This document shows, one piece after another, positions 4,997 through 27,116 of a DNA stretch of 32,000 nucleotides (positions within the stretch are counted from its first letter, which is position 1; every line of letters starts with the position of its first letter). A model generated the notes under the pieces. It saw nothing but the letters and a program-made list of their open reading frames with translations. It made no database searches and was not told the origin of the DNA. Both the position numbers and the translations under genes were made by a program. The stretch comes from Crocosphaera subtropica ATCC 51142. Lineage in GTDB: Bacteria; Cyanobacteriota; Cyanobacteriia; Cyanobacteriales; Microcystaceae. The stretch covers positions 1,830,001 through 1,862,000 of the forward strand of contig NC_010546.1 in the NCBI RefSeq assembly GCF_000017845.1, written 5' to 3'.

Positions 4997-7900
4997 TTAA
5001 GGTGAGATTTTTCCTATCATATTTCCAGTCGGTAGAATAATTTTTAATTCGGTATAATCGTTCTCTTGACTATCTATCAAAATTTGTCCTTGGTGTCCTT
5101 GTACGATAATATCATGGCTAATAGATAATCCTAATCCCGTTCCTTGTCCGGTGGGTTTAGTGGTAAAAAAGGGATTGAACACCTTATCTATGATGGGTTG
5201 AGCAATGCCTTTGCCATTGTCTCGAATCATGATTTCTATTTGTTCATGTTTAGCTGCTGTGGTTATTGTTAACGTTGGGGTGAAGTCTTCTTGAAGCGAT
5301 TTGCCCTTTTCATGAACAGCATAACAAGCATTATTAATAGCATTGAGAAAAACTCGACTAATATCTTGGGGAACAATGTTAATTTCTGGGATATTACTGT
5401 CATAATGAGTGTTAATTTTAATTTTAAAAGAAGGCTCTTTGACCCGCATTCCATGATAGGCTAAATTAACAGACTCAGCTAATAAATTATTAATATCTGT
5501 TAGTTGTCGTTGTCCTGGTTTTCCTTTCGAGTGCATTAACATTCCATGAACAATTTTATCGGCCCGTTGTCCATGTTCATGAATTTTCTGAGAATTTTGT
5601 TTAATATCTTCTAATATTTCTTCTATATAATCGATGGTTTCTGTATCTAATCCATCTTTGTGATCTTCTATTTCTTCTTGTAATTCTTCTGTTAACTCGA
5701 CACAAATTTCTGCAAAGTTATTGACGAAGTTTAAAGGGTTTTTGATTTCATGAGCAATTCCAGCTGTTAAAGCCCCAAGAGAGGCTAATTTTTCTTGGGC
5801 AATAATTTGATTTTGGGTTGCTTTAAGTTTGGCTAAAGTTACATTTAATTGCTTATTTTTATCTTGTAATTCTTGAGTTCTTGATTGAACTTTCTTTTCT
5901 AGGGTTTTACTATAGTCTTCTAGTTGTTCATAGAGACGAGAATTCTCAATGGAAATCGCAGCAGAACTCGATAGGATTTTAACAATTTCTACCCTTGCAG
6001 GGGTAAAAGCATCGGTAGTTAAATTATTTTCTAGATAAATAATTCCGTTGATTTTTCCTTGGTTAATAAGAGGAGTACAAAGAATTGATTTAGGTTTATT
6101 GTTAATAATGTAAGTCGTTTGAGTAAAGTTACCTTCTTGAGTCGCATCATTTAAAACAATACTTTCCTGGGTATGGGCAACATAGTTGATAATAGGTATT
6201 GATAGTCGAATATCGTGAGAATTTTGCTCAGAATTATTAAGAGGTATTGATTGTAAAATGGTCAGATTTGTATTGTCAATATTGCCTTCTGCTTCAATCA
6301 ACCAATTATTATTATGTTCGAGTAATAAAAATCCTTTTTGTGCGCCAGCATTTTCGATGATCGTTCTCATCAATTTTTCTAATAAATTTTTTAAAATAAT
6401 CTCACCAGAAATCACTTGAGATGCTTTGAAGATACTATTAAAATCTAACTCTTTAGTGAATCGTTTTTCAGTGATTTTTGTTTTTAATTTCTTGGGAGAA
6501 TAGTTGTCTTTTGAGATTAACTGAGGATAGGTTTCTTCTAAGTGTTTTAGTTTAGCAGTAGCACCCCAAACTTGATAATAGTAGTAGGCATCCTGTAAGT
6601 AATAATGAGCTAAATGGGTATGTTCTTTATTCAAATAAAATTTAGCAGCTAATTCATAAGCGATCGCTTGTTCATGAATATAATTACTTTTTTCAAAAGC
6701 AGTGATAGCTTGATCATAGCATTCTCTAGCATTTTTATCATCTCCTAATACACGATATAATTCAGCTTCGATTAAATAAAATTTACCTAAATAGTGACTA
6801 GGATTATGGGTTGCTAAAAGGTTTAGGTTTGTTTGGTGATTGGTGACTTTTTTGATGATACTCTGTTGTTCTTTTTCAGATTTTTGGTCATAAATAGCTA
6901 AATGGGTTAAACAATAGTAAAAAAGAAATTTTGGTGATCCTGCTGTTAACATTTCTCCTATATATTTTTCCCCTTCTAAAGCATATTCTAAGGCGTTTTC
7001 TAACTCACCCAATAGATAACAAATGGTAGTTTTATGGGTATAAATATGAAATAAAGCTAAATTATAGTTACCTTTTTTATACAAGGGAAGCATTTGCTCT
7101 TCGTTAAAGGCTTCACCAACTAAGCGACAAGGAAATTGGCATTCATTCTGCAAGTTAAGCACAAGTTGATAATTCATTGCTAAGAAATATAGACTATTCT
7201 TACTTTGCATTTTTTTAGCAGCTTGTATATATTTACTTAACTCGCTTTTCACTTGAGTTAATTCTTTTCCTATAGCAAATAAATAATTGCAATAGAGTTG
7301 AGCATTCCACATTGCATACTCAATATTACCTATTTCTAATCCTTTTTCATATCCTGACCGCAAAGGATTTAATAGTTCTTTAATAGGTTCTTTCCAATGT
7401 CTAATGGCTAAGATAACAACAAAGGAGGTTTGCGCTTCTACACGTTTTGCTTGAAGTTTTGATAATAAGGATAAAGCAAGTTTTCCAAATTCATAACCAG
7501 CATCAAAATTTTCACTAATTTGACATAATAGTTCACCATAAAAAGCATAAGCAACACAAGCTTCAGGGGAATTTCCATAGTTAAGGCATAACTTAATCTG
7601 TTGAGTAACGGTTATAATAAATAGTCGAGGACTCGCCAAAAATGCGGCCATACTCATAGTGACTAAAATTCGCAAAGAAGCTATGGCTTTATTATCAGTA
7701 ATCAGGGGTAAATTAACTAAGTCTTTGATAACTGTATCTTGGAGTAATAGATTCGTTTCTTCTAAGGAGTTTTTAATCTCTGAAGCAGTAGGATTTTTAG
7801 GAATAATGATACCTAATAAAGCTAAAGTTGATAACGATAAATTTATGGCTTCTAGTAAATTATTTTGGGATGTATAGGCCTTGATTTTTATTTCATACGC

Positions 7901-10405
7901 TTTAACCTGATCTAAGATAAATTTACTATGTTCTATAATAGTTAGCACCAAAACTTCCATAACTTGAAAGTTACCCGTTAAATAAGCCGATTCCGTTGCT
8001 TCTAAATAAACTTCTAAGGAAAATTGATATTGAGTGTTCCAAATTTGATCCTTGTCTAAAATACTAATGGCAAATTGTAAATAATTTAAAGCAACTTCAT
8101 AGGCTGCTGATGCCTTTGCTTTTTTTCCAGCTATTAAATTTAATTTGGCAAGTTGCTCATATTCTAAGGGGTTTTTAATCAGCTTATAACCAATATTAAT
8201 TTGATTAACAATATCAAATATTTTTTCTTCTTGTTTTATTTTAGGTGTGTTATTTAATAATAACTTTCCTATTTTTAGATGTATTTCTTCCTGCTTTTGC
8301 TTAGATAGTAGGGAATAAGCTGCCTGTTGTACCCGATCATGGGAAAATTGATAGGTAACTTTTAGTGTTTGAGGGATTTCTTCATCTTCTTGATAATTAT
8401 TAATGAGTTTATATTGATTATTAAGAGGTAAAATCAAACCTTTTTCTAAGGCATTGACCAAATAATTTCCTGTTGCAATTTGTGAATAATTACTAACCAT
8501 TGCTAAGGTAGTTAAATCAAACTTACTACCGATACAAGCTGCTATTTTTAAGATTTCTTGTATTGTTGTTGGTGTATTTTTGATATTAGTGGACATTAAG
8601 TCAACAACATTTTCAGTGATTTGTAAAGCTTGAATTTTATCTTCATTATAATCCCATTGTCTTTGGAAGTTATCAAAAACTAAAATTTCATTCTGATGCA
8701 GAGAGGATAAAAATTCTTTAACAAAGAAAGGATTACCATTTGTTTTTTTCTTAACTAATTTTGCTAGTTTTTTACAGCTTTTTTCTTCTAAGTTTATGGT
8801 GTCCTTAATTAATCCTTCAAGCTGAGAAACTGTTAAATTATTGAGTACAAGTTCTTCAATAATTACCCCTTGATTATGAATATCATTTAAGGTTAATCTG
8901 ACAGGGTGCGCTAAATCAACTTCATTATCTCGATAAGCACCAATAATAAATAAAGATTGATCATCTAATGTGGTAATTAAAGACCGTATTAATTGTAATG
9001 AAGCCGTATCAGACCATTGCAAATCATCTAAAAAGATTACCAAAGGATGCTGTTGCTTAGTGAATACTTTTAAGAAATTTTGAAACACTAAATTAAAACG
9101 ATTTTGTGCTTCTTTAGGTTCTAAGGGAATAACTGCTGGTTGCGATCCAATAATCTGTTCAATTTCGGGGATAACATCAATAATAACTTGTCCATTAACC
9201 CCTAAAGCCATTAGTAATTTTTCACGCCATTGGCTAATATTTTGGTTAGATTCTGTGAGCAATTGGTTAACTAATTCTTGACAAGCTTGTATAATAGCTG
9301 CATAAGGAATATTTCGTTGAAATTGCTCAAATTTTCCCGAAATAAAATAGCCTTTTTTTTCAGTAACAGATGGGTAAATTTCACGAATTAAAATTGATTT
9401 ACCGATACCCGCATATCCAGACACTAATATCATGGCATTGTGTCCTTTCGTTACTGTATTAAAAGTATTAATCAACCTCTGGATCTCGGTTTCTCTACCA
9501 TAAAGTTTTTGCGGAATTTGAAACTTCTCAGAGACATCATATTGTCCTAATAAAAATAATTTAATTTCATTTTTTTCTGTTAATTGGTTTAAACATTGTT
9601 GTAAATCTGCTTTAATTCCTTTAGCACTTTGATATCTATCTTCAGGAGTTTTAGCCAATAGTTTCATAATAATATGAGAAATAATTATAGGAAGATTGGG
9701 GCTAATCTGATGAGGATAATTCGGCTGTTTCGCAATATGAAAATGAACTAATTCTAAGGGATCTTCCGTGATGAAAGGAAGTTGATGGGTTAACATTTCA
9801 TAAAAAGTAACTCCTAGGGAATAAAAATCAGTATGATAATCAATTTTTCGGTTCATTCTCCCTGTTTGTTCAGGGGACATATAAGCTAAAGTTCCCTCGA
9901 TTAAATTAGGGTTAAGTTCCTGAGTATTCTCTAAAGCCAGTTGGGTCGAAATTCCAAAATCTATTAATTTTATCTCCTGACTTTTCGGATGTATAATAAT
10001 ATTAGTTGGGTTAATATCTTTGTGGATAATATCAGCATCATGAACCACTTCTAATCCTTCAACGATTTTGATAGCAATGTTCAAAAAACAGTCTAGATTT
10101 AAGGGCTTTTCTTTTAATAAAGCGTCTAAAGCTATTCCTCCAAAATCTTCGAGAAGAATGACTAAAGTATTTTGATATTTGTCAATTCCGTAGGTTTTAA
10201 TAATTCTTGGGGAATTGAGTCGACGTAGTATTTTATATTCTTGTTTAAACTGTGATAGGGTCAGAGGATCTGGATGATTTTCTTGAAGAATTTTTAAGAT
10301 GACAGGTTGCTGATCTTTTTCCCTAATACCACGGTAAATTAAAGAGTGAGAACTTTCGTAAAGTCTTTCTATAATACGACAATTATTGATAATCATATTC
10401 ATCAT
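4997..10405 (-). CDS. multidomain sensor: Ser/Thr protein kinase - P-loop NTPase (AAA_16/STAND-like) - TPR-like helical repeats - GAF - histidine kinase (HisKA + HATPase_c)
   Basis: Kinase motifs are VILKIL, HKDINPTN, DFG and AYMSPEQ. Walker A SGYAGIGKS is encoded at 9395-9421 and Walker B-like VIFLDDLQW follows. A long helical repeat region and a GAF-like block (...IIYLENNL...) come next. The H-box is AHEIKNPLN with the His codon at 5750-5752, followed by the N box (NAINNA), DNGKGI and GTGLGLS. Confidence 0.9.
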   Translation of the reverse strand: MMNMIINNCRIIERLYESSHSLIYRGIREKDQQPVILKILQENHPDPLTLSQFKQEYKILRRLNSPRIIKTYGIDKYQNTLVILLEDFGGIALDALLKEKPLNLDCFLNIAIKIVEGLEVVHDADIIHKDINPTNIIIHPKSQEIKLIDFGISTQLALENTQELNPNLIEGTLAYMSPEQTGRMNRKIDYHTDFYSLGVTFYEMLTHQLPFITEDPLELVHFHIAKQPNYPHQISPNLPIIISHIIMKLLAKTPEDRYQSAKGIKADLQQCLNQLTEKNEIKLFLLGQYDVSEKFQIPQKLYGRETEIQRLINTFNTVTKGHNAMILVSGYAGIGKSILIREIYPSVTEKKGYFISGKFEQFQRNIPYAAIIQACQELVNQLLTESNQNISQWREKLLMALGVNGQVIIDVIPEIEQIIGSQPAVIPLEPKEAQNRFNLVFQNFLKVFTKQQHPLVIFLDDLQWSDTASLQLIRSLITTLDDQSLFIIGAYRDNEVDLAHPVRLTLNDIHNQGVIIEELVLNNLTVSQLEGLIKDTINLEEKSCKKLAKLVKKKTNGNPFFVKEFLSSLHQNEILVFDNFQRQWDYNEDKIQALQITENVVDLMSTNIKNTPTTIQEILKIAACIGSKFDLTTLAMVSNYSQIATGNYLVNALEKGLILPLNNQYKLINNYQEDEEIPQTLKVTYQFSHDRVQQAAYSLLSKQKQEEIHLKIGKLLLNNTPKIKQEEKIFDIVNQINIGYKLIKNPLEYEQLAKLNLIAGKKAKASAAYEVALNYLQFAISILDKDQIWNTQYQFSLEVYLEATESAYLTGNFQVMEVLVLTIIEHSKFILDQVKAYEIKIKAYTSQNNLLEAINLSLSTLALLGIIIPKNPTASEIKNSLEETNLLLQDTVIKDLVNLPLITDNKAIASLRILVTMSMAAFLASPRLFIITVTQQIKLCLNYGNSPEACVAYAFYGELLCQISENFDAGYEFGKLALSLLSKLQAKRVEAQTSFVVILAIRHWKEPIKELLNPLRSGYEKGLEIGNIEYAMWNAQLYCNYLFAIGKELTQVKSELSKYIQAAKKMQSKNSLYFLAMNYQLVLNLQNECQFPCRLVGEAFNEEQMLPLYKKGNYNLALFHIYTHKTTICYLLGELENALEYALEGEKYIGEMLTAGSPKFLFYYCLTHLAIYDQKSEKEQQSIIKKVTNHQTNLNLLATHNPSHYLGKFYLIEAELYRVLGDDKNARECYDQAITAFEKSNYIHEQAIAYELAAKFYLNKEHTHLAHYYLQDAYYYYQVWGATAKLKHLEETYPQLISKDNYSPKKLKTKITEKRFTKELDFNSIFKASQVISGEIILKNLLEKLMRTIIENAGAQKGFLLLEHNNNWLIEAEGNIDNTNLTILQSIPLNNSEQNSHDIRLSIPIINYVAHTQESIVLNDATQEGNFTQTTYIINNKPKSILCTPLINQGKINGIIYLENNLTTDAFTPARVEIVKILSSSAAISIENSRLYEQLEDYSKTLEKKVQSRTQELQDKNKQLNVTLAKLKATQNQIIAQEKLASLGALTAGIAHEIKNPLNFVNNFAEICVELTEELQEEIEDHKDGLDTETIDYIEEILEDIKQNSQKIHEHGQRADKIVHGMLMHSKGKPGQRQLTDINNLLAESVNLAYHGMRVKEPSFKIKINTHYDSNIPEINIVPQDISRVFLNAINNACYAVHEKGKSLQEDFTPTLTITTAAKHEQIEIMIRDNGKGIAQPIIDKVFNPFFTTKPTGQGTGLGLSISHDIIVQGHQGQILIDSQENDYTELKIILPTGNMIGKISP

Positions 10406-12921: not shown

Positions 12922-14022
12922 ATGAACGATAGTATTTCATTCAGTATCGATATAGATAGCATTATTATTTTCGCTGTTGTTACCCTAATTTTAATCATTG
13001 CTGCCATTGGTTTATTTTTGTTACCTAGAATTTTAGGAAACATTATCACGAATATTTTTTCGAGTGAAGTTAAAGTTATTTATGATAAGATTATTCCCCC
13101 TTATCAAAACTGGTTAGGATTAGTCGGATTATTAACCATTACGGATCTGAGTTTATCACTTTTTTCCTTACCCAGTTGGCTAAAATTCCTAGAAATCCCT
13201 TTAAGTCTGGCAATTGTGTTTACCGTTATTTGGGTTGGGTTACAAATTTGTCAAACCTTTTTTGATGACCATTTATTACAATTGGCGATCGCTAATAGTA
13301 GTAAACTGAATAGTGAATTTATTATTATTGCCAAATATCTCACTAAAGCTGCTATTATTCTCATTGTTTTATTCATCTTTGCAGAAACCCACGATATTAA
13401 TGTATTTGGGTTATTAGCCAGCTTAGGAATTGGAGGCTTAGCGGTGGCTTTTGCAGCCCAAAAAAGCCTTGAACAACTATTAGGGGGAATTGTTCTTTAT
13501 TTAGATAAACCCTTCATTGCAGATGATTATATTGGCTTACCCGATGGCACGTTTGGCAGAGTTGAATCGGTGGGGTTACGGTCAACAAAAATTAGAACAT
13601 CAGGGAAAGGAACCCTCATGATCGTACCGAATAGTTCCTTAACCCAGATGAATATTGAAAACTACACCGGTGCTAAAAAAGTAGTTTCTTTGATTTATTT
13701 AACCTTTTATCGCTTAATTCCTAAAGATGAAGAAGCATTAATTCGTCAAGTCATCTTAGACAGTACAAGCGACATTTTTGGCATTGACTCTCGCAGTACC
13801 GACGTTATTTTTAAAGAAGTGGCTGTTAAGAATGGAACGGGTTTAGTGACTCAAGCACAAATTAACTTTTTTATCTTGGGATCAGGAGAAGTATCTATGG
13901 AGTTACGCCGTCAATTTTTAGAGATTGCCAATCAACAAATTACCTATCAATTAAAAGAATATGGTATTGGCTTTGACATAGAAGATAAAACCATTAACGT
14001 TGATTCACCCATTACTGTTTAA
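12922..14022 (+). CDS. MscS-family mechanosensitive channel (paralog 1)
   Basis: N-terminal TM helices followed by the pore-helix signature GLLASLGIGGLAVAFAAQKSLEQLLGG and a beta-domain (GRVESVGLRSTKIRT...). Confidence 0.85.
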   Translation: MNDSISFSIDIDSIIIFAVVTLILIIAAIGLFLLPRILGNIITNIFSSEVKVIYDKIIPPYQNWLGLVGLLTITDLSLSLFSLPSWLKFLEIPLSLAIVFTVIWVGLQICQTFFDDHLLQLAIANSSKLNSEFIIIAKYLTKAAIILIVLFIFAETHDINVFGLLASLGIGGLAVAFAAQKSLEQLLGGIVLYLDKPFIADDYIGLPDGTFGRVESVGLRSTKIRTSGKGTLMIVPNSSLTQMNIENYTGAKKVVSLIYLTFYRLIPKDEEALIRQVILDSTSDIFGIDSRSTDVIFKEVAVKNGTGLVTQAQINFFILGSGEVSMELRRQFLEIANQQITYQLKEYGIGFDIEDKTINVDSPITV

Positions 14023-14028
14023 TAATCA

Positions 14029-15159
14029 TTGATCATGACAGTTATTATCGAATATTTCACCAATTTATTCCAATTTGATGAAGCAGCCCAAAAGGGTATT
14101 ATTACCTTTGGCTTACAATTACTGATTTTTCTTGTTTTTGTCCTGTTATCCTTATTAATTGGACGCTATACTCCCTTTTTAGCTAGGCTTATTATTCAAC
14201 GATTTTCTCCTAAGCAAGTTGCTAGTATTTATGGAAATTTAATTACGCCCATTGAAGACTTATTCCGTATTACAGGCACTTTAATTCTTGTTTCTATTTC
14301 TCTCAATTTTTTGGTTAACTACACGGGGATTTATCGATTTTTAAATTTCTTTATTGATCTAGCTGTAATTAGTAGTTTTGCTTGGCTTTGTTCTCGGCTT
14401 TTTCGGCAATTTGTTCGGTTTTATGGCATTGATTTAGTGAGAAAACTAGGCCGACAAGTGGATGAATTATTGTTAGTCTTTGAAACCATTGCCAATGTTA
14501 TTATTGGTTTTATCGCTGTCTTAGCTTTTGCCCAAAGTCAACAAGTGAATCTAGTGGGATTATTAGCCAGTTTAGGAATTGGGGGTTTAGCCATTGCGTT
14601 TGCAGCCCAAAAAACCCTCGAACAACTATTAGGAACCTGCGTATTATATCTTGACCGTCCGTTTATTCCTGGGGAATATATACGGCTTCCGAGTGGCTTA
14701 TTTGGTCGGGTTGAATCCATTGGTTTACGGTCAACAAAAATCCGTACAGCAGCCAAAAGCACCCTGATGATTGTTCCTAATTCTATCATGGCTAACCTAG
14801 AAATTGAGAACGTTACCCGTGGGAAAAAGGTAATGGTTTTACTCTATTTAGACTTTCTTAAACAGTTAGAAGATTCCGAACAAGCTTTAGTCGAACAAGT
14901 GGTAAAAGAAAGTACCGATGCTTTATTTGGTATCGATCCAGGCAGTACCAAAATTTCTTTATTTCCCAAAGAAGGCAGTGATGGAATTCGGGCAAGAGTG
15001 ACCTTTTTTATCCTAGGTTCCAGTGAAAATTCCATTGAATTAAGAAAACGGTTATTAGAATTAGCCAATGAAACCATTACCAATAAACTCAGTAATTATG
15101 GTATTGAATTTACTGTACAAGAACCGACAATTTATGTAGAATCTCCTGTTACCATTTAA
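14029..15159 (+). CDS. MscS-family mechanosensitive channel (paralog 2)
   Basis: Same core as paralog 1 (GLLASLGIGGLAIAFAAQKTLEQLLGT...GRVESIGLRSTKIRT). TTG start at 14029, with an alternative ATG at 14035. The N-terminal TM region is diverged. Confidence 0.85.
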   Translation: MIMTVIIEYFTNLFQFDEAAQKGIITFGLQLLIFLVFVLLSLLIGRYTPFLARLIIQRFSPKQVASIYGNLITPIEDLFRITGTLILVSISLNFLVNYTGIYRFLNFFIDLAVISSFAWLCSRLFRQFVRFYGIDLVRKLGRQVDELLLVFETIANVIIGFIAVLAFAQSQQVNLVGLLASLGIGGLAIAFAAQKTLEQLLGTCVLYLDRPFIPGEYIRLPSGLFGRVESIGLRSTKIRTAAKSTLMIVPNSIMANLEIENVTRGKKVMVLLYLDFLKQLEDSEQALVEQVVKESTDALFGIDPGSTKISLFPKEGSDGIRARVTFFILGSSENSIELRKRLLELANETITNKLSNYGIEFTVQEPTIYVESPVTI

Positions 15160-18689: not shown

Positions 18690-20093
18690 CTAAATCCTGA
18701 CTTCTAATTTCTCAGCTTTCACCTCCTTAACTTGTTGTTTGGGTTGATATTGACTGGCAATTAAAGCCACTAAAAACCACCATAAGGTATTAACTTGGGG
18801 ACGATACCAAACTGTATCAAATAACCCTTGGGCCATTAAGCCAGCCATAGCAGCGATCGCAGCTATTAACCACATACCATAGAGATTATTTTGATCCCGT
18901 AATTGTTGAATTTGTCGGACTCCTTGATTAACCGTAACAACAATTAACCAAACAAAAATACTTAGGCCAATTAATCCTGTTTCAACTGCGGTTTCTAACA
19001 ACACAGAGTAAGAACTTAAAGCACTATATTTCGGACTCATGTAAAGGGGATAAATTTTATTAAACGCATTATTACCGGGACCAATCCCAATTAAAGGGCG
19101 ATCGCGAATCATATCTAATACTGCCATCCAAACATTCATACGAAAATTATTACTACTATCTTCTCGTCCCATAAAAATAGTCATAACCCTCATTCGTAAT
19201 GAGTCAACGGAGAGAATAGCAGCAAACATTAAACCCCCTAAAACAGCAAAGACTAACGGTAATAACCACCTACGCCAAAATGGGGATAAATTGTTTTTAA
19301 ACCAAACAAAAAATAATAATAAAAAGGTTGCCATTAACGCTACCATTGCAATCCAACCGCCCCGACTTCCCGTAAAATAAAGACAGGCGGTATTCACTAA
19401 CGTAATAGTAATGGCTAATAGTTTAGGAAATAAACCTCGCCAAACAAAAAAAGCAGCAACTCCAAAAGCAATAGAGGGTAATAAATAAGCAGATAACAAA
19501 TTAGGATTACCCAAATAACTATAAACCCTAGTTGCACCAGCTAATTCAGAAGTCGGATCATTCCAAGTCGCTAATTGTTCCACCCCAAAAATTTGTTGGC
19601 GAACGCCATAACAACCCACCACTAAACCAATACCTAAAACTGCCGTAATTAAGTAATTCGTTAATCGAGGCGATCGCAAAATCCTCGCACAAAAAACAAA
19701 AAATACTAAATACAAAGTTAACTTAACAAATCCCGAAAAAGCGGCAGCTTTAACAGGAGATAATGCCACCGCAACCGCCGAAATTCCCCAATAAAGAAAC
19801 ACCAATAAATGAATCGGACTAAACCCAGGTTTTTCACGATCAGATAGGGTTAAAATACCCCAATAACCTGTAATGGCGATTAACCAAACCCCGATCAAAC
19901 CAGTGGTAATAAAGGGACTAAAAATAAAGACAAGACTAATTAATAATGCCCCAATCGCCTCGCTCCACTGTAATAAAAAACTCGACTCACGCCAAGCAGC
20001 CAATAAACCCACCAAACGGTAAACATAACTCGCATTGAGCCAAGTTTTCGGTGAAAAGTAAGAGAGGGTAACAAGATCCCAAGTTGAATTCAT
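18690..20093 (-). CDS. ictB: IctB-family membrane protein (O-antigen-ligase/Wzy_C-like domain; historically 'putative bicarbonate transporter')
   Basis: 467 aa, polytopic. The N-terminus (W..VTLS.F.P..W...S...RLVGLL.AWR.SS.LL.WSEA), RVYSYLGNPNLLSAYL, GREDSSNNFR.NVW and GIGPGN.AF closely follow the IctB sequence of Synechococcus PCC 7942 as I remember it. Confidence 0.85.
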   Translation of the reverse strand: MNSTWDLVTLSYFSPKTWLNASYVYRLVGLLAAWRESSFLLQWSEAIGALLISLVFIFSPFITTGLIGVWLIAITGYWGILTLSDREKPGFSPIHLLVFLYWGISAVAVALSPVKAAAFSGFVKLTLYLVFFVFCARILRSPRLTNYLITAVLGIGLVVGCYGVRQQIFGVEQLATWNDPTSELAGATRVYSYLGNPNLLSAYLLPSIAFGVAAFFVWRGLFPKLLAITITLVNTACLYFTGSRGGWIAMVALMATFLLLFFVWFKNNLSPFWRRWLLPLVFAVLGGLMFAAILSVDSLRMRVMTIFMGREDSSNNFRMNVWMAVLDMIRDRPLIGIGPGNNAFNKIYPLYMSPKYSALSSYSVLLETAVETGLIGLSIFVWLIVVTVNQGVRQIQQLRDQNNLYGMWLIAAIAAMAGLMAQGLFDTVWYRPQVNTLWWFLVALIASQYQPKQQVKEVKAEKLEVRI

Positions 20094-20283: not shown

Positions 20284-21111
20284 ATGCTGACCTATCCAAA
20301 GGGAGATAACCCGTTGACTACGCTAATACATCCTACTGCTGTCATTCATCCGAAGGCACAAATCGATCCCACCGTGGAAGTAGGCCCCTATGCTGTCATT
20401 GGTGATCAGGTGAAAATAGGCGCACAAACCACAATAGGACCCCATGTGGTCATCGAAGGTCCCACAGAAATTGGCGAAAATAACCGCATTTTTCCCAGTG
20501 CAGTCATTGGTTTAGATCCCCAAGACCTCAAATATAAAGGGGCCCCCAGTCGGGTCAAAATTGGAAATGGCAACACTATTCGGGAGTTTGTGACCGTTAA
20601 CAAAGCAACCCACGCCGATGAAGTGACTGAAATTGGCAATAATAACTTGTTGATGGCTTATGTTCATGTTGCCCATAATTGTGTGATCGAAGACCATGTA
20701 ATCATTGCTAACGCGGTCGCTTTAGCCGGCCATGTTCACATTGAGTCTAGGGCAGTCATTGGGGGAGTTTTAGGGATTCATCAATTTGTGAGAATTGGCC
20801 GTAATGCTATGTTAGGGGGAATGAGTCGCATTGATCGCGATGCCCCTCCTTTTATGATGATTGAAGGAAACCCTTCTAGAGTGCGATCGCTCAATTTAGT
20901 GGGGTTAAGACGGGCGGGACTCACCACCGAAGATGTGGGCTATCTTAAAAAAGCGTTTCGTCTCTTGTATCGGTCTGATCTCACGTTACAACAAGCTTTA
21001 GAAAAGTTAGAAAGCTTCGATAATAATGAATATTCCCAATATTTACGTCATTTTCTTCAACTCTCAACCACAGGAGAAAAACGACGGGGCCCCATTCCAG
21101 GTAATAATTAA
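20284..21111 (+). CDS. lpxA: acyl-ACP--UDP-N-acetylglucosamine O-acyltransferase
   Basis: Left-handed beta-helix hexapeptide repeats, PQDLKYKG, YVHVAHNCVIEDHVI, and a C-terminal helical domain. It lies immediately upstream of lpxB. Confidence 0.93.
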   Translation: MLTYPKGDNPLTTLIHPTAVIHPKAQIDPTVEVGPYAVIGDQVKIGAQTTIGPHVVIEGPTEIGENNRIFPSAVIGLDPQDLKYKGAPSRVKIGNGNTIREFVTVNKATHADEVTEIGNNNLLMAYVHVAHNCVIEDHVIIANAVALAGHVHIESRAVIGGVLGIHQFVRIGRNAMLGGMSRIDRDAPPFMMIEGNPSRVRSLNLVGLRRAGLTTEDVGYLKKAFRLLYRSDLTLQQALEKLESFDNNEYSQYLRHFLQLSTTGEKRRGPIPGNN

Positions 21112-21235
21112 GATTAACCATTAATAGCCAATAAAAATTAAGACGGTTTTTTATCATGTTTTTTTGTTCAAAAGAGAGAGTTAAACACTGAATTACCTAA
21201 TGATAAATTGATAATCACGGGTTAAAGAGGAAGTT

Positions 21236-22408
21236 ATGCAAATTTTTATTAGTACCGGGGAAGTTTCAGGGGATCTACAAGGATCAATGTTAGTTGAAGC
21301 CTTGTATCGACAAGCCAAACAGCAAAATATTCCTTTAGAAATTTTGGCCTTGGGAGGTAATCTCATGGAAGCAGCCGGGGCGAAGTTATTGGGCAATACG
21401 GCCGGTATTGGGTCTATTGGTATTGTTGAAGCCTTACCCTTTATTATCCCTACTTGGTTAATGCAGCGTCGGGTTAAGGCTTATTTACGGGAGAATCCCC
21501 CAGATGTTTTAATTTTATTGGATTATATGGGACCGAATGTGGCGTTTGGTAAATACGCCCGTAAATATTTACCTAACGTGCCGATTATTTATTATATTGC
21601 TCCTCAGTCTTGGGTTTGGGCTCCCAATAATAAAACCATTGAACAATTTGCCGAAATTACTGATATTTTATTGGCGATTTTTCCCGAAGAAGCACGATTT
21701 TTTGAGAAAAAAGGGGTAAACGTTAAATGGGTAGGTCATCCTTTATTAGATAGAATGGCTAAAGCCCCCACCAAAGAAGCGACTCGTCAAGCTTTAGGAC
21801 TGACAGAAGATCAGCGTGTGATTGCTTTATTTCCAGCCTCTCGTTATCAAGAACTAAAGTATCATTTACCCTTAATTTGTAAAGCGGCACAGAAGTTACA
21901 AGAGAAGGTTCCTAATGTTCATTTTCTTTTACCTGTTTCTTTAAAAGAGTATCGTCACACCATCGAAGAAATGGTGAAACAATATGATTTACCTATTACT
22001 TTATTTGATGGACGGGCTATTGAAGTGATGGCGGCTGCTGACTTTGCTATTGCTAAATCAGGAACCGTTAATTTAGAATTAGCCCTGTTAGATATTCCTC
22101 AATTAGTTCTCTGTTTAGTGAATCCTTTAACCATGTGGATTGCTAGGAATGTTCTTAAGTTTTCTATTCCTTTTATGTCTCCTCCTAATTTAGTTGTTAT
22201 GAAGAAAATTGTTCCCGAATTATTACAAGAAGAAGCAACTGTTGACCGTATTGTTGATGAATCTTTAGACTTATTATTAAACCCTGAACGCCGTCAAAAA
22301 ACTTTCGCTGACTATGAAGAAATGAGAACACTTTTAGGAGAAGTTGGAGTCTGTGATCGCGTGGCTAATGAAATTTTAAGCTTTTCCCCTGTCTCTAGTC
22401 CCTCGTGA
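21236..22408 (+). CDS. lpxB: lipid-A-disaccharide synthase, copy 1
   Basis: MQIFISTGEVSGDLQGS... is the typical LpxB N-terminus (GE.SGD). The length and GT-B layout fit, and it sits downstream of lpxA. Confidence 0.9.
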   Translation: MQIFISTGEVSGDLQGSMLVEALYRQAKQQNIPLEILALGGNLMEAAGAKLLGNTAGIGSIGIVEALPFIIPTWLMQRRVKAYLRENPPDVLILLDYMGPNVAFGKYARKYLPNVPIIYYIAPQSWVWAPNNKTIEQFAEITDILLAIFPEEARFFEKKGVNVKWVGHPLLDRMAKAPTKEATRQALGLTEDQRVIALFPASRYQELKYHLPLICKAAQKLQEKVPNVHFLLPVSLKEYRHTIEEMVKQYDLPITLFDGRAIEVMAAADFAIAKSGTVNLELALLDIPQLVLCLVNPLTMWIARNVLKFSIPFMSPPNLVVMKKIVPELLQEEATVDRIVDESLDLLLNPERRQKTFADYEEMRTLLGEVGVCDRVANEILSFSPVSSPS

Positions 22409-22482
22409 AACTTGTTACACAGTCCCATAAACCTCTTCATCATAGCTACAATCAGACCGTTGATATGGGAAGGAGAATCTAA

Positions 22483-22613
22483 ATAACATCTAAGTTGGCT
22501 TTTCAAGATAACTTAGACAGTGTTTTTTCAAAAATGAATCTACCGAATATCTGCGTCAATTTATACAATGATCAATTCCAGAAACAGAACGACAGAGTAG
22601 ATTTATTGGATTA
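22483..22613 (+). pseudogene. degenerate, frameshifted relic of the lpxA 3' end
   Basis: 22533-22568 (aatgaatctaccgaatatctgcgtcaatttatacaa, NESTEYLRQFIQ) matches lpxA 21025-21060 (aatgaatattcccaatatttacgtcattttcttcaa, NEYSQYLRHFLQ) at 28 of 36 nt. Upstream, in a frame shifted by 1 nt at the A-run near 22530, ...LAFQDNLDSVF resembles lpxA ...QALEKLESF. Stops occur at 22480, 22509 and 22569. Confidence 0.55.
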
Positions 22614-22645
22614 GTTGTCACAAAAATAGCAAAAAATAGAGAAAA

Positions 22646-23803
22646 ATGCAAATTTTTATTAGCACAGGGGAAGTGTCTGGGGACTTACAGGGATCACTAT
22701 TGGTTGAAGCCCTCTATCGACAAGCCAAACAGCAAAATATTCCTTTAGACATTTTGGCCTTGGGAGGTCACCTCATGGAAGCAGCCGGGGCTAAGTTATT
22801 GGGAAATACGGCTGGTATTGGGTCTATTGGTATTGTTGAAGCTTTGCCTTTTATTATCCCCACTTGGTTAATGCAGCGTCGGGTTAAGGCTTATTTACGG
22901 GATAATCCTCCCGACGTATTGATTTTATTGGATTATATGGGGCCTAATGTAGCTTTTGGTAAGTACGCCCGTAAATATTTACCTAATGTGCCGATTATTT
23001 ATTATATTGCTCCTCAGTCTTGGGTTTGGGCTCCCAATAATAAAACCATTGAACAATTTGCTGAAATTACTGATATTTTATTGGCGATTTTTCCCGAAGA
23101 AGCACGATTTTTTGAGAAAAAAGGGGTCAACGTTAAATGGGTGGGTCATCCTTTATTAGATAGAATGGCTAAAGCCCCCACTAGAGAAGCCACTCGTCAA
23201 GCTTTGGGACTAACAGAAGATCAGCGTGTAGTTGCTTTATTTCCTGCGTCTCGTTATCAAGAATTAAAGCATCATTTACCCTTAATTTGTAAAGCGGCAC
23301 AAAAGTTACAAGAGAAGGTTCCCGATGTCCATTTTCTCTTACCTATTTCTTTAAAAGAATATCGTCACACCATCGAAGAAATGGTAAAACAATATGATTT
23401 ATCTATTACTTTATTTGATGGACAAGCAATGGAAGTAATGGCAGCTGCTGACTTGGCTATCACTAAATCGGGAACCGTTAATTTAGAATTAGCTTTGTTG
23501 AATGTTCCACAATTAGTTTTCTTTTTAGTCAACCCTATTACCATTTGGATTGCTAGAAATATTTTAAAATTTTCGGTGCCTTTTATCTCACCCATTAATT
23601 TAATTGTTATGAAAGAAATTGTCCCCGAATTATTGCAAGAAGAAGCAACAATTGACCGTATTGTTGATGAATCTTTAGACTTATTATTAAACCCAGAACG
23701 CCGTCAAAAAACCTTCGCTGACTATGAAGAAATGAGAACCCTTTTAGGAGAAATTGGAGTTTGCGATCGTGTGGCTAATGAAATTTTACATTATCAAAAG
23801 TAA
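22646..23803 (+). CDS. lpxB: lipid-A-disaccharide synthase, copy 2
   Basis: Intact 385-aa ORF. By hand count about 28 of 381 aligned residues differ from copy 1, and the C-terminal tail is different (HYQK vs SFSPVSSPS). Confidence 0.9.
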   Translation: MQIFISTGEVSGDLQGSLLVEALYRQAKQQNIPLDILALGGHLMEAAGAKLLGNTAGIGSIGIVEALPFIIPTWLMQRRVKAYLRDNPPDVLILLDYMGPNVAFGKYARKYLPNVPIIYYIAPQSWVWAPNNKTIEQFAEITDILLAIFPEEARFFEKKGVNVKWVGHPLLDRMAKAPTREATRQALGLTEDQRVVALFPASRYQELKHHLPLICKAAQKLQEKVPDVHFLLPISLKEYRHTIEEMVKQYDLSITLFDGQAMEVMAAADLAITKSGTVNLELALLNVPQLVFFLVNPITIWIARNILKFSVPFISPINLIVMKEIVPELLQEEATIDRIVDESLDLLLNPERRQKTFADYEEMRTLLGEIGVCDRVANEILHYQK

Positions 23804-23824: not shown

Positions 23825-24673
23825 ATGCGTCGAGATTCAATCTTTTATAAACTCTTTCAAACCTATCCAGGTTTATTGTTTAAACTATTAACAAATCCTC
23901 CAGGAAATGCTGAGGAATATAGATTTGATTCTGTGGCTGTTAAAGAACCGAGATTTGAGATCGATGGAGTATTCTTACCCCCAGAAAATGAAGATCCAGG
24001 AGTCGTTTATTTTTGTGAAGTACAGTTCCAAAAAGACGAAAGATTGTATGAGAGAGTCTTTGCTGAATCGTTACTCTATTTCTATCGTAACCGCAATCGC
24101 TTTAGTGATTGGCAAGGAGTAATAATTTATCCCAATCGCAACATCGAACAAAGTGAAACTCGTCCTTATAATGATTTATTGAGAAGCGATCGCATCACCA
24201 TAATCTATTTAGAGGAATTAGGCAATATTCGAGACTTACCTCTAGAAATAGCCGTCATGTTGTTAACCACAGTAGATGAAGAACAAGCACCCCAAGAAGC
24301 TAGGTATTTGTTACAAAAAACTCAACAAGAAATCCCTCAATCACTAAATCAAGGCATAATAGAGTTAATTACAACCATCATCGCTTATAAATTTGAACGG
24401 CTAAGTAAAAAGGAGGTAGAAGAAATGCTAGGAATTACTTTTGAAGAAACACGAGTTTACCGAGAAATTAAGCAAGAAGGAAGGGAAGAAGGAAGACAAG
24501 AAGGAGAAAAATACCTTATTATCCGCCAACTAACGAAACGAGTGGGAGAATTATCCCCAGAAGTTCGTCAAAATGTTGAAGCTCTCTCGATCAAACAATT
24601 AGAAAGCCTCGGTGAAGCACTCCTTGATTTTACTAACATGGCTGATTTAAAAAATTGGTTAGAAGTACATTAA
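23825..24673 (+). CDS. Rpn-family recombination-promoting nuclease / putative transposase (cyanobacterial DUF2887 + DUF4351 type)
   Basis: N-terminal DSIFYKLFQTYPGLLFKLL...YRFDSVAVKE..FEIDGVF.P......VYFCEVQFQKD is the PD-(D/E)xK-like DUF2887 pattern. The C-terminal ...IIRQLTKRVGELSPEVRQNVEALSIKQLESLGEALLDF matches DUF4351. Confidence 0.75.
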   Translation: MRRDSIFYKLFQTYPGLLFKLLTNPPGNAEEYRFDSVAVKEPRFEIDGVFLPPENEDPGVVYFCEVQFQKDERLYERVFAESLLYFYRNRNRFSDWQGVIIYPNRNIEQSETRPYNDLLRSDRITIIYLEELGNIRDLPLEIAVMLLTTVDEEQAPQEARYLLQKTQQEIPQSLNQGIIELITTIIAYKFERLSKKEVEEMLGITFEETRVYREIKQEGREEGRQEGEKYLIIRQLTKRVGELSPEVRQNVEALSIKQLESLGEALLDFTNMADLKNWLEVH

Positions 24674-24730
24674 TTTTACTTAAAAGCGATCGCAAAAATA
24701 GACAGATTGAGCATAGCTAGTTAGCTATAG

Positions 24731-25144
24731 TTAACAGTCATCTTGATTTGATCGTAACCACTGAGTTATAGATAATGATAAAGAAGTACGTTGACGAATT
24801 TTAGGATTAATGGAAACGTGCTTAGTGGTTGCTTTAGCAATCAATTTATCTAAATTATTTTCATTGAAAACTTGATACTTAATCTCAAATTCTGTTTCGT
24901 TTAATTGAGTCGGGGTTAAATTAATTTGAATGCGATCGCCACAAAATAAGGGTTGATAAAAATCAATGTCAGCATGAACAATAGGAATAGCAATATCTGA
25001 ACTGGTAAAAAACGTTTTTAGATCAATTCCTGCTACTTGTAAAGAATTTTCATAAGCTTCGTGACATATAGATAAGAAAGCCGCAAAATAAACAACCCCT
25101 GCTGCATCCGTATCAGAAAAATGAATGGTTCTATTATAAGTCAT
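24731..25144 (-). CDS. hotdog-fold thioesterase, 1,4-dihydroxy-2-naphthoyl-CoA hydrolase type (phylloquinone pathway)
   Basis: YNRTIHFSDTDAAGVVYFAAFLSICHEAYENSLQVAGIDLKTFF...IPIVHADIDFYQPLFCGD closely parallels Synechocystis Slr0204 as I recall it. The 137-aa size fits the 4HBT fold. Confidence 0.75.
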   Translation of the reverse strand: MTYNRTIHFSDTDAAGVVYFAAFLSICHEAYENSLQVAGIDLKTFFTSSDIAIPIVHADIDFYQPLFCGDRIQINLTPTQLNETEFEIKYQVFNENNLDKLIAKATTKHVSINPKIRQRTSLSLSITQWLRSNQDDC

Positions 25145-25147
25145 TAA

Positions 25148-26269
25148 TTAATTATTGTTAGATGAGTTTAGATTAAATTCTAATTGACTTTGAACGGCAA
25201 TCTCTTGAATAATATCTGATATATTCCCCTGCTCAATAATTGTGTTAATATATTCATGTAATATAGGAAGATTAATGATTTCTTCAACAGAGTCTAAGTA
25301 ACGATTAACAATTGCGTTTATTTTATATTTAAGTTTAGCTTGTTGTTGAATTTTTTCTTTAATCTTTTCTGTTGTTTCATTGGATTTTACAACAAAAGTA
25401 ATAGGGTATTTTTGTACTTTATCAATATCTAAAAAATACTTATTAACATCTATAGTCTCTGTAACTTGAAAAAAACGACCTAATGGTTTCATGACAAAAT
25501 CAATACCACCATCATTAGCATTAGTTCGACCAGTTTTATATAGTATTAAATTATCTTCGGTTAGTTCTTCTAAAGAATAACCCCAAAATATTTTTTGTTC
25601 TGCATAAAAAGTTTTAAGAATTGCATAACTTGTAATTTCAAATACTCTCGCATCTATATTAGGTCTTAAAAGAGTTTTGATGAAATTTACTGCGTCATTA
25701 TTATCTTTATTTTCAATTTGTAGTAATTCATCACAATAACTCATAAAATCTCTGAATGATTGTTGACGTGCATTTACATAAGCATCTATAATGTGTTTAA
25801 CAACTAGAGCAATATTATACTTAATTTTTGACACTTCTATAATTAATAAGTTTTCATTAATCCAGTAACGACTGGTTTCTACATCTCTTAAAATGGGTTT
25901 TTGTTCAATAGTAGGAAAATATTTACTAAATTCCATGTTAAGACGATGATTCAGTGCATGATTTTGTAACTTTTCTCCAAAAGGTAATTCTCGTTGACGA
26001 CGTAATAAGTCTGAAAATCTTGCTCCTTCATATTCTTCATAATTATTTTGATTATAAAACCCTTTATTAATATAATCTTCAACTAAGACATAAAGTGCAT
26101 AATGATTACCAAGAGAAGGTCTAGACTTTGATCCTTTATTGGCTGATTTTGTTTTAATATTCAAATATTGTAATAATGGACTATTTTGAAAAATATCCTC
26201 AGCATTTTCGTCAAAATATTGGGTTAATATTTCAAGAATAATCTGCGTAAATTGGTGTTTTTTAATCAT
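25148..26269 (-). CDS. putative type II restriction endonuclease (family not assignable)
   Basis: Overlaps the 3' end of the methyltransferase gene by 8 nt and is very AT-rich. The segment NDGGIDFVMKPLGRFFQVTE (25457-25513) is reminiscent of a PD-(D/E)xK/Mrr-like core. The call rests mainly on context. Confidence 0.55.
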   Translation of the reverse strand: MIKKHQFTQIILEILTQYFDENAEDIFQNSPLLQYLNIKTKSANKGSKSRPSLGNHYALYVLVEDYINKGFYNQNNYEEYEGARFSDLLRRQRELPFGEKLQNHALNHRLNMEFSKYFPTIEQKPILRDVETSRYWINENLLIIEVSKIKYNIALVVKHIIDAYVNARQQSFRDFMSYCDELLQIENKDNNDAVNFIKTLLRPNIDARVFEITSYAILKTFYAEQKIFWGYSLEELTEDNLILYKTGRTNANDGGIDFVMKPLGRFFQVTETIDVNKYFLDIDKVQKYPITFVVKSNETTEKIKEKIQQQAKLKYKINAIVNRYLDSVEEIINLPILHEYINTIIEQGNISDIIQEIAVQSQLEFNLNSSNNN

Positions 26270-27116
26270 CTTTAAATAGCTCTAATTGTTGGTAATTTCT
26301 TTGATAGCTTTTTAAAGGCTTTTGTAAGAGATTACCATTATAATGTGTACAAATTCCTAAACGTCTTAAACCAATTTTTATATAATCTTCTTCAATTTCA
26401 ATTCCAATAGATTTTCGCCCTACTTTTTGAGCAACTGCGGAAGTTGTAAAAGTGCCGGCAAAAGGATCAAGGATCGTATCTCCCACATTACTACTTGCCA
26501 AAATAATACGTTTTAAAAGTGCTTCTGGTTTTTGAGTTGGATGTTTTTCATATTCTTCCATACGATAACGAACCCTTGGGAAATACCAAACATTTCCAGG
26601 AACTTTGTGGGAATTATAAACTTTTGGGATTGCTTTACGATAATCAATTAATTTTCGTTTTGAACCTGTTTTTGCTTCTACTTTTATGTCATCCCGATTA
26701 AATGTATATGATTTAGGATTTTTGACTCCATAAATTATCGGTTCATATAAAGAACCAAAATAATTCTTAGCTTGCACTCCTGAGCTATCATAATGCCAAA
26801 TAATTCTTGATAAAATATGAATATGTTTACGTAAATAAATATCTAAGTAAGGAATAGTTTGTGTACTAGCCATAAGATAAATACTACCTTCAGGATGAAG
26901 CTTTTTAAAACATAATTCTAACCAAGAATAACACCATAATAAATAGTTTTCTTCTGTTGGCCATTTATCAATAAAATTAGCGTATTTTTTACCAATATTA
27001 TAAGGAGGATCAACAAAAATAAGGTGAATACTTTCATCTTGGATTTCTTGGTCTAAAAGTTTAATACTGTCTCCAAATAGAATAATATGCTCGCCACTAC
27101 TATCTTGATATTTCAT
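26262..27116 (-). CDS. beta-class DNA methyltransferase (N6-adenine or N4-cytosine; PF01555-like)
   Basis: The DPPY catalytic motif is encoded at 27000-27011 near the N-terminus. The AdoMet motif ILDPFAGTFTTSAVA lies near the C-terminus, and the order IV before I indicates the beta class. HPTQKPEALLKRII is also present. Confidence 0.9.
   Translation of the reverse strand: MKYQDSSGEHIILFGDSIKLLDQEIQDESIHLIFVDPPYNIGKKYANFIDKWPTEENYLLWCYSWLELCFKKLHPEGSIYLMASTQTIPYLDIYLRKHIHILSRIIWHYDSSGVQAKNYFGSLYEPIIYGVKNPKSYTFNRDDIKVEAKTGSKRKLIDYRKAIPKVYNSHKVPGNVWYFPRVRYRMEEYEKHPTQKPEALLKRIILASSNVGDTILDPFAGTFTTSAVAQKVGRKSIGIEIEEDYIKIGLRRLGICTHYNGNLLQKPLKSYQRNYQQLELFKDD

Follow-up and report, generated by a model that had tools for sequence, protein, structure and literature searches.

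The present analysis concerns a tandem pair of lpxB genes, coding for lipid-A-disaccharide synthase, in a stretch of 32,000 nucleotides (nt) of the chromosome of the cyanobacterium Crocosphaera subtropica ATCC 51142 (contig NC_010546.1, positions 1,830,001 to 1,862,000). This whole stretch is called the window here, and positions are counted from its first letter. Our data indicate that the two genes, lpxB1 and lpxB2, are probably an old tandem pair of single origin which has been homogenised by gene conversion and which codes for two working enzymes. lpxB counts as a single-copy core gene in the biogenesis of the outer membrane, and the synthesis of lipid A in cyanobacteria is poorly understood. 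Both genes were already annotated as lipid A disaccharide synthase, and the processes invoked below are textbook ones. What is new is a well-documented case in a gene that is usually single-copy, and the history of the locus is more interesting than its annotation suggests. A literature search for Cyanothece lpxB and for these two genes returned no paper discussing them.

lpxB1 and lpxB2 lie head to tail on the forward strand in the list of open reading frames (ORFs) and code for proteins of 390 and 385 amino acids (aa) respectively; the coordinates of all features are collected in Table 1. PF02684 (LpxB) is matched by LpxB1 with 348 bits and by LpxB2 with 346 bits against a cut-off of 22.6 bits, in both cases from position 1 to position 365 of the 374 of the profile. 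Both also exceed the cut-off of the NCBIfam equivalog TIGR00215 (190.25 bits), scoring 384.6 and 382.9 bits. Exact look-up identifies them with the deposited entries ACB51179.1 and ACB51180.1 from C. subtropica ATCC 51142, which has a finished chromosome of 4.93 Mb. An earlier reading made from the letters alone (the sequence-only reading) had described two full-length lpxB ORFs in head-to-tail order. The ORFs and both family profiles bear this out, and the geometry it gave was reproduced: a gapless repeat of 1143 nt at an offset of 1410, 28 differing residues among 381 (4 within residues 1-179 and 24 beyond), a block at 21578-21770 with 3 mismatches, and homology that ends 4-9 codons before the stops. 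The repeat contains 107 mismatches in all (90.6% identity), falling 24/4/79 on codon positions 1, 2 and 3, and the proteins are 93% identical. Colinearity ends past codon 381, where the two copies run into unlike tails, SFSPVSSPS and stop in copy 1, HYQK and stop in copy 2. lpxA lies directly upstream of the pair, which makes this a lipid A gene neighbourhood. The lpxA-lpxB order is also found in the related loci in which lpxA was located (L001-L021, L030, L032 and L122; L numbers are our handles for the loci compared), and LpxA of the window has 96-98% aa identity to that of the closest Crocosphaera genomes. Repeats call for general caution, and the sequence-only reading had itself raised the concern that a single gene might have been represented twice by the assembly. 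There is virtually no chance of such an artefact, as the copies differ at 107 of 1143 nt (9.4%) and have unlike tails and flanks, both proteins are deposited for a finished chromosome, and an independent metagenome assembly (L030, discussed below) has the same arrangement.

One genome per species was scanned, which gave 22 Crocosphaera-clade loci. A single lpxB was found in each of the 22 loci, and among 13 crown genomes C. subtropica is the only one with the pair. The statement of the sequence-only reading that lpxB is normally single-copy thus holds among these 22 relatives, but not everywhere, as lpxB1/lpxB2 paralogues are on record in Leptospira (PMC4758666). Most of the single-copy relatives end in HYQK-like tails, as copy 2 does, and in L001 and L020 the DNA downstream of the single lpxB carries the same Rpn-like gene that follows copy 2. 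From the tails and flanks of the relatives it can be seen that the ancestral context is preserved on the 5' side of copy 1 and on the 3' side of copy 2. lpxB1 is the copy closer to all single-copy orthologues. The novelty of the locus is the 267 nt between the two colinear cores. It should be noted here that the Rpn family comprises recombination-promoting nucleases and putative transposases, and that its member in the window starts 21 nt past lpxB2. As an Rpn-family gene also lies 3' of the single lpxB in L001 and L020, it is an old neighbour, unconnected with the duplication. Two further observations were made on the loci compared. The length of the lpxA-lpxB spacer is variable among close relatives: the intergenic region between lpxA and lpxB1 in the window (21112-21235) has 124 nt, against ~25-40 nt in L030 and L003 and ~109 nt in L005. 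In L022, a metagenome-assembled genome (Cyanothece sp. UBA12306), the single lpxB at 6001-7333 is interrupted after codon 136; the tblastn match picks up again after 179 nt, and the ORF that opens at the start codon is 235 aa long. An insertion or a frameshift may lie behind this, or else a fault of the assembly.

The sequence between the two cores reads as the scar of a duplication. A tail of the lpxB1 type is absent from all crown Crocosphaera orthologues, which have HYQK-like ends; the tail of lpxB1 can be aligned with the ends of the single-copy lpxB genes in Crocosphaera XPORK-15E (L012) and UHCC 0190 (L122). In a four-way alignment of 22379-22495 with L012 and L122 the stop codon is in register and the homology continues up to the start codon of argF (OTCase), the gene that comes after the single lpxB in both of these genomes. 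The lpxB-argF flank of the L012/L122 type is the apparent source of the sequence after lpxB1; alternatively, L012 and L122 could descend from a tandem-bearing ancestor that lost copy 2. The flank lies at 7174-7260 in L012 and at 5174-5260 in L122, in each case after a 390-aa single lpxB with an AF(Q/K)GSS..I tail and before argF. The next part of the spacer is a remnant of lpxA. It matches LpxA residues ~231-273 and gives blastn matches to the lpxA 3' ends of L012, L018 and L003 and to the window's own lpxA; tblastn with LpxA finds residues 243-273 in the spacer of the window and residues 234-271 in the spacer of L030. The sequence-only reading had placed the start of homology precisely at the ATG of the two genes, which is right for the strong homology, but a decayed lpxA remnant lies upstream of copy 2. 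On these alignments the junction is shown to be the end of an lpxB-argF spacer joined to lpxA at about codon 231. Exactly this junction is expected from a tandem duplication reaching from the middle of lpxA to the start of argF in a genome with the order lpxA-lpxB-argF. A one-sided illegitimate insertion into the lpxA of C. subtropica was also considered and is disfavoured, as the intact lpxA is native along its whole length.

The same pair was found in L030, a metagenome scaffold of 51.7 kb with two protein-search matches on it. L030 carries lpxA, a 390-aa lpxB ending in SFSLASCPS and stop, a spacer, and a 386-aa lpxB ending in HYQRG and stop. The spacer is 237 nt long in both the window and L030. 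When the 267-nt junction of the window was compared with that of L030, a z-score of 12.7 was obtained for the whole and of 9.9, 4.2 and 7.6 for its three parts, against -0.7 for a control flank. The first of these parts, 33 nt from 22379 that take in the tail, the stop and the next 3 nt, has 82% identity with the first copy of L030, and the two stops coincide in place; the second is spacer part 1, and the L030 spacer also matches the L012 downstream sequence (z=5.4). The homology of all three parts shows, at the level of sequence comparison, that the junction arose once and that the pair has a single origin. Independent duplications in the two lineages were rejected, since all three parts of the junction are homologous. 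Its distance from C. subtropica (89% LpxA identity and ~20% DNA difference in lpxB) puts L030 on a level with the deepest Crocosphaera lineages. Dating of the spacer by gapped global alignment was dropped, because an unrelated control reached 62% apparent identity, and the z-scores and figures from MAFFT alignments were used in its place.

The relation between the copies differs strikingly within and between the two genomes. Within a genome the lpxB copies are 90.6% identical in the window and 87.8% identical in L030, with a synonymous divergence (dS) of 0.375 and 0.547 respectively, whereas every combination of copies between the window and L030 gives 77.5-79.6% identity and a dS of 1.34-1.93; for lpxA the dS between window and L030 is 1.25. 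Given the shared origin, the closeness within each genome points to homogenisation inside each genome. The lpxA remnant is in keeping with this. It is only 56% identical to the lpxA of its own genome in the window and 59% in L030, no closer to it than to the lpxA of other species and near saturation. The silent-site identity of the lpxB copies is ~70% in the window and ~61% in L030 (proportion of silent differences, pS, 0.295 and 0.388). By our own calculation, a duplication no older than these silent sites imply should have left a remnant with ~72-79% identity to lpxA. Third-position changes specific to copy 2 exceed those specific to copy 1 (47 vs 21, P=0.0016), an excess that fits an older copy 2 which would have been overwritten only in part. 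From these comparisons we strongly infer that gene conversion, confined to the coding repeat, has homogenised the copies. An older duplication partly homogenised by conversion was one of the options put forward by the sequence-only reading, and it becomes the best-supported one on the basis of the L030 junction, the within-genome likeness and the nearly saturated lpxA remnant. The argument it had drawn from the mosaic pattern is insufficient for this purpose, as silent-site divergence is not significantly uneven.

One region of copy 2 appears to have escaped homogenisation. At six positions within codons 260-300 the two copies differ in both pairs and in the same direction (R260Q, F270L, A273T, C293F, L298I/V and M300I), and lpxB1 has the orthologue-type residues R260, F270, A273, C293, L298 and M300. 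Positions 270, 273, 293 and 300 are F, A, C and M in all the Crocosphaera-clade single-copy orthologues examined and in both first copies; at 260 the crown genomes and the two first copies have R and some deeper relatives have Q, and at 298 either L or V occurs. That the differing positions of the two pairs overlap to this extent has a P of 0.018, direction not being counted. At codon 260 both second copies have the identical two-base change, CGG to CAA, and five sites at nt 779-885 of the gene, one of them silent, are exclusive to lpxB2 and copy 2 of L030. Over residues 255-320 the nearest protein to LpxB2 is copy 2 of L030 (88%, vs 79% for lpxB1-type proteins), whereas outside the island LpxB2 is 93-94% identical to lpxB1-type proteins and 84% to copy 2 of L030. 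In codons 301-324 most of the substitutions of lpxB2 match no other sequence, and the L030 copies are identical over nt 907-962. Across 134 cyanobacterial LpxB proteins, residues 270, 273 and 293 covary, being F-A-C in Crocosphaera-type LpxB and L-T-Y/F in others, so that copy 2 has exchanged several coupled residues together. We rejected the idea that the island was imported from a distant cyanobacterium with L-T-F (of the P0028, P0031 or P0032 type), as the sequences nearest to it over its whole length are copy 2 of L030 and Crocosphaera or UCYN-A proteins. A profile of the 91-residue island region, searched against the protein collection, gave short fragments of ordinary cyanobacterial LpxB and no further protein of the copy-2 type.

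The placement of the signature sites is informative when seen against the structure of the Escherichia coli enzyme. In the alignment to 5W8S the E. coli numbering coincides with that of LpxB2 in the island stretch. In E. coli LpxB, G261 makes a water-mediated contact to uracil, T277 and E281 contact phosphate and ribose, F298 stacks on the catalytic R201 of the partner subunit, and the chains of the dimer cross in helix 14 at about residues 295/296 (PMC5785501). By alignment, the signature sites adjoin G261, T277, E281 and position 298 and also fall within helix 14. Selection presumably prevents homogenisation at the signature sites, and LpxB2 most likely differs from LpxB1 in the handling of the donor substrate or in dimer pairing. 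Subfunctionalisation had been offered by the sequence-only reading as its other option; the conserved copy-2 residues near the pocket for uridine diphosphate (UDP) and the crossover helix give a hint of it.

Both copies have the features of working enzymes. By the Nei-Gojobori method the nonsynonymous divergence (dN) between lpxB1 and lpxB2 is 0.037, and dN/dS is 0.10. By segment dN/dS ranges over 0.03-0.18, with the value of 0.18 in the block of codons 261-330 that covers most of the diverged patch. Both proteins can be aligned to E. coli LpxB (5W8S) over residues 9-356, where E15, S17, D98, S200, R201, T277, E281 and the structural residue N316 of E. coli correspond to E9, S11, D96, S202, R203, T277, E281 and N318 here. 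The catalytic and UDP-binding roles of the E. coli residues are taken from the structure paper (PMC5785501). None of the eight is among the 28 differing positions, so that the loss of catalytic or UDP-binding residues against which the sequence-only reading had cautioned is seen in neither copy. The reading frames of both copies are intact in two lineages, the window and L030. We infer that purifying selection is keeping both copies as working enzymes. A contrary explanation would be that copy 2 is redundant and is turning into a pseudogene, the diverged patch being early decay. Copy 2 has indeed evolved faster (20 specific aa changes vs 7, P=0.012), the Shine-Dalgarno-like sequence at lpxB2 is weak, and changes found only in lpxB2, including P317I, lie beside N318. 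Decay is very improbable all the same, as the frame is intact in two lineages separated by a dS of more than 1, dN/dS is low overall and in the patch itself, the TIGR00215 score of LpxB2 is on par with that of LpxB1, every catalytic residue is retained, and the changes at the signature sites are conserved and not random. A promoter and terminator scan of the spacer gave background levels with no terminator-like site between the copies, and the spacer upstream of lpxB2 has no Rfam match and no significant RNA fold (z=-0.7). With no terminator-like site, RNA family match or significant fold there, co-transcription with lpxA-lpxB1 is the default assumption. Of the nine-enzyme pathway cyanobacteria have only lpxA, lpxC, lpxD and lpxB (PMC3087551), and with only these four genes the true substrates here may differ from those of E. 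coli.

A number of results weigh against an old pair homogenised by conversion, among them the pattern of divergence inside the window. The sequence-only reading had found this divergence to be strongly non-uniform. Over all sites it is uneven (max-chi-square P<0.002, with 26 of the 107 differences in nt 847-951), and aa-changing codons are clustered (P<0.002), but silent-only codons are compatible with uniformity (P=0.31). Measured against the rate profile of the orthologues, the departure is clear for all sites (P=2.6e-6) and short of significance for third positions (P=0.056). The longest identical run is marginal in the window (P=0.06) as well as in L030 (P=0.08). None of these tests demonstrates an individual conversion tract. 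The stretch 21578-21717, with identical runs of 74 and 65 nt around one mismatch, shows 0.33-0.41 of the divergence that the rate profile of the orthologues would predict; it is suggestive, and a candidate for a recent conversion tract. Between genomes, dS has reached saturation, and L030 is the only further lineage that was found to carry the tandem. At the nucleotide level lpxB2 is, in the island, no closer to copy 2 of L030 than to lpxB1, so that the common ancestry of the signature rests on few sites. Moreover, all 22 single-copy relatives have the copy-1-type signature residues, which under pure vertical descent needs many collapses, all resolved 3' of the island. Collapses that leave copy-1-type residues together with a copy-2 tail are feasible, possibly, if single-copy cells need the copy-1 form.

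The mosaic that is visible in the window is chiefly, as far as region trees can tell, a patch of aa change in copy 2. In neighbour-joining trees copy 2 is sister to copy 1 in nt 1-740 and 951-1143, and in nt 741-950 it stands on a long basal branch, with 27 of the 38 copy-2-unique substitutions (binomial P=2e-12). The high divergence that had been ascribed to the 3' third of the gene applies to nt ~763-1016, but the last 127 nt are similar again. Such a pattern could also arise if the pair were a recent duplication in the C. subtropica lineage (dS ~0.37), with no conversion and with copy 2 passing through a localised episode of relaxed or positive selection. The even silent-only codons and the clustering of aa-changing ones agree with this, as do the sister position of lpxB2 and lpxB1 in most of the gene and the single copy of all close relatives. 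It is nevertheless unlikely. The same junction, tail and 237-nt spacer exist in L030, which is diverged by ~20%; divergence is much higher in the lpxA remnant than at the silent sites of lpxB; copy 2 has its excess of third-position changes; and substitutions of copy 2, including the double-base codon change, are common to copy 2 of L030.

The history that we prefer, an old pair evolving in concert, would thus have run in four steps. In the first, shown by the alignments of the scar, an lpxB tail and 3' flank from an lpxA-lpxB-argF layout came to be followed by a fragment starting at about codon 231 of lpxA. In the second, the pair, which is shown to have arisen once, would have reached both lineages by one of two routes, vertical inheritance with repeated reduction to one copy elsewhere or horizontal transfer as a cassette. 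In the third, which is strongly inferred, the coding sequences would have been homogenised repeatedly in each genome by conversion, while the noncoding remnant decayed freely. This free decay would be the reason why strong homology now starts at the ATG, and the decayed remnant would eventually have been unable to take part in conversion. In the fourth step purifying selection would keep both enzymes and codons ~260-300 of copy 2 would resist homogenisation, most likely meaning that the pair is sub- or neo-functionalised and not redundant.

As to the second step, a cassette or its junction could have come from a lineage like XPORK-15E, UHCC 0190 or L030, recombined through the lpxB arms and then undergone conversion. 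This is a variant of the preferred explanation and not an exclusive rival, and conversion is required under either route. We consider the transfer route possible, though we lean away from it. Copy 1 ends in a tail and flank of the kind seen at lpxB-argF in L012 and L122, which look foreign for the crown group, the gene order upstream of the pair in L030 is the same as in L122, and copy 2 has a tail and a downstream gene as in crown Crocosphaera. Among the 13 crown genomes the pair is confined to C. subtropica, and one transfer is more economical than at least 6 independent losses. Tandem repeats of 1.1 kb collapse easily, however, so that losing a copy several times over would cost little. The sequence looks native in lpxB1 and in most of lpxB2, at a distance of 7-9% from L002-L004 and of 20% from L030, and no donor-like arm is visible. 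Both lpxA remnants are closest to the lpxA of L012 (0.64 and 0.69), a preference that is within sampling error, and a transfer could have run in either direction. Metagenome contigs were also scanned with the 18-nt junction word AAATTTTAAGCTTTTCCC; there were 88 matches, of which 0 encode LpxB, and all are chance matches, the word being too short.

Table 1. Features of the lpxB locus of C. subtropica ATCC 51142 (positions in the window)
Feature	Position	Strand	Family or other evidence
lpxA (UDP-GlcNAc acyltransferase), intact; source gene of the spacer remnant	20284..21111	+	Pfam Hexapep, Acetyltransf_11
lpxB1, full-length lipid-A-disaccharide synthase; upstream context ancestral, C-terminal tail non-ancestral	21236..22408	+	PF02684, TIGR00215
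Least diverged stretch, 1 mismatch/140 nt vs 22988-23127; candidate recent conversion tract	21578..21717	+	
lpxB1 tail (SFSPVSSPS and stop); colinearity with lpxB2 ends	22379..22408	+	
Spacer part 1, 3' flank of copy 1; homologous to lpxB-argF intergenic region of XPORK-15E and UHCC 0190	22409..22495	+	
Pseudo-lpxA, decayed 3' end of lpxA (~40 codons, in-frame stops present); 5' boundary of the duplicated unit	~22497..22610	+	
Decayed copy of the lpxA-lpxB intergenic region, directly upstream of lpxB2	22611..22645	+	Colinear with L012, L018 and L030 spacers
lpxB2, full-length lipid-A-disaccharide synthase; HYQK tail and downstream context ancestral	22646..23803	+	PF02684, TIGR00215
lpxB2 core island, codons 260-300 (Q260, L270, T273, F293, I298, I300)	23423..23545	+	
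Extension of the diverged patch, codons 301-324, private to this lpxB2 (I306, V311, I314, I317, I320, E324)	23546..23617	+	
Rpn-family gene (DUF2887/DUF4351), ancestral downstream neighbour of lpxB in the clade	23825..24673	+	PF11103, PF14261, TIGR01784

Some other features of the window deserve mention. A second pair of tandem paralogues is formed by the adjacent ORFs 12922-14022 and 14029-15159 (forward strand, 366 and 376 aa), both with an MscS mechanosensitive-channel beta domain. On the reverse strand at 25148-27116 an N6/N4 DNA methylase (26262-27116) overlaps by a few bases an ORF of 373 aa (25148-26269). The latter has no convincing Pfam match, and the two together look like a restriction-modification pair. 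The reverse strand also carries, at 4997-10405, an ORF of 1802 aa with a Ser/Thr protein kinase domain, an AAA_16 ATPase, a GAF domain and a histidine-kinase module. Short repeats occur at 24175-24194, 24675-24694, 24930-24955 and 19082-19105, and several of them contain the palindrome GCGATCGC, which is the HIP1-like motif so frequent in genomes of cyanobacteria.

The locus appears to be a clean natural example of conversion limited to a coding repeat, in which the scar of the lpxA remnant can still be read. It is known that tandem repeats collapse easily; set against this, the survival of a direct tandem across deep divergence, with purifying selection on both copies and the conserved switch in copy 2 at the nucleotide-sugar pocket and the dimer-swap helix, points to two enzyme forms with different jobs in a model nitrogen-fixing cyanobacterium. 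One could go further and suppose that LpxB2 is a distinct, long-maintained form of the enzyme that travels, together with LpxB1, as a cassette from one Crocosphaera lineage to another. Its switch of six residues, from F-A-C to L-T-F at 270, 273 and 293 with further changes at 260, 298 and 300, would repack the crossover helix of the domain-swapped dimer and give either a different use of donor or acceptor or an LpxB1-LpxB2 heterodimer. This extended proposal is speculative and on the whole doubtful. If it were true, a different UDP-diacylglucosamine donor or a different acceptor would lead to a second lipid A species, and a heterodimer would have two non-equivalent active sites. A functional difference of LpxB2 is suggested here from comparison of sequences.

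Comparison with known systems places the pair more closely. Like E. coli LpxB (GT19; 5W8S and 5W8X), the two proteins have the full-length family match and the key residues, and the genes have the same position directly after lpxA. There are, however, two copies here instead of one, and copy 2 is substituted at 260, 270, 273, 293, 298 and 300, around the UDP pocket and the crossover helix. With the lpxB1/lpxB2 paralogues of Leptospira the locus has in common that there is more than one lpxB per genome and that the second copy is present in some lineages only (PMC4758666). As compared by description, the pair here differs from that of Leptospira in being adjacent, 93% identical in protein and evolving in concert. 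Legionella, too, is said to have paralogous lipid A genes. The concerted evolution of bacterial duplicates by gene conversion, with few selected differences, is classically represented by tufA/tufB. The lpxB pair resembles systems of this type in that the copies of one genome are more alike than those of different genomes, homogenisation is limited to the coding repeat and the flanks have diverged. It differs from them in three ways. The lpxB genes are in direct tandem, an arrangement that is normally unstable. Their identity is only 91%, so that conversion would be infrequent or old. In addition, lpxB2 keeps a conserved island that is specific to one paralogue.

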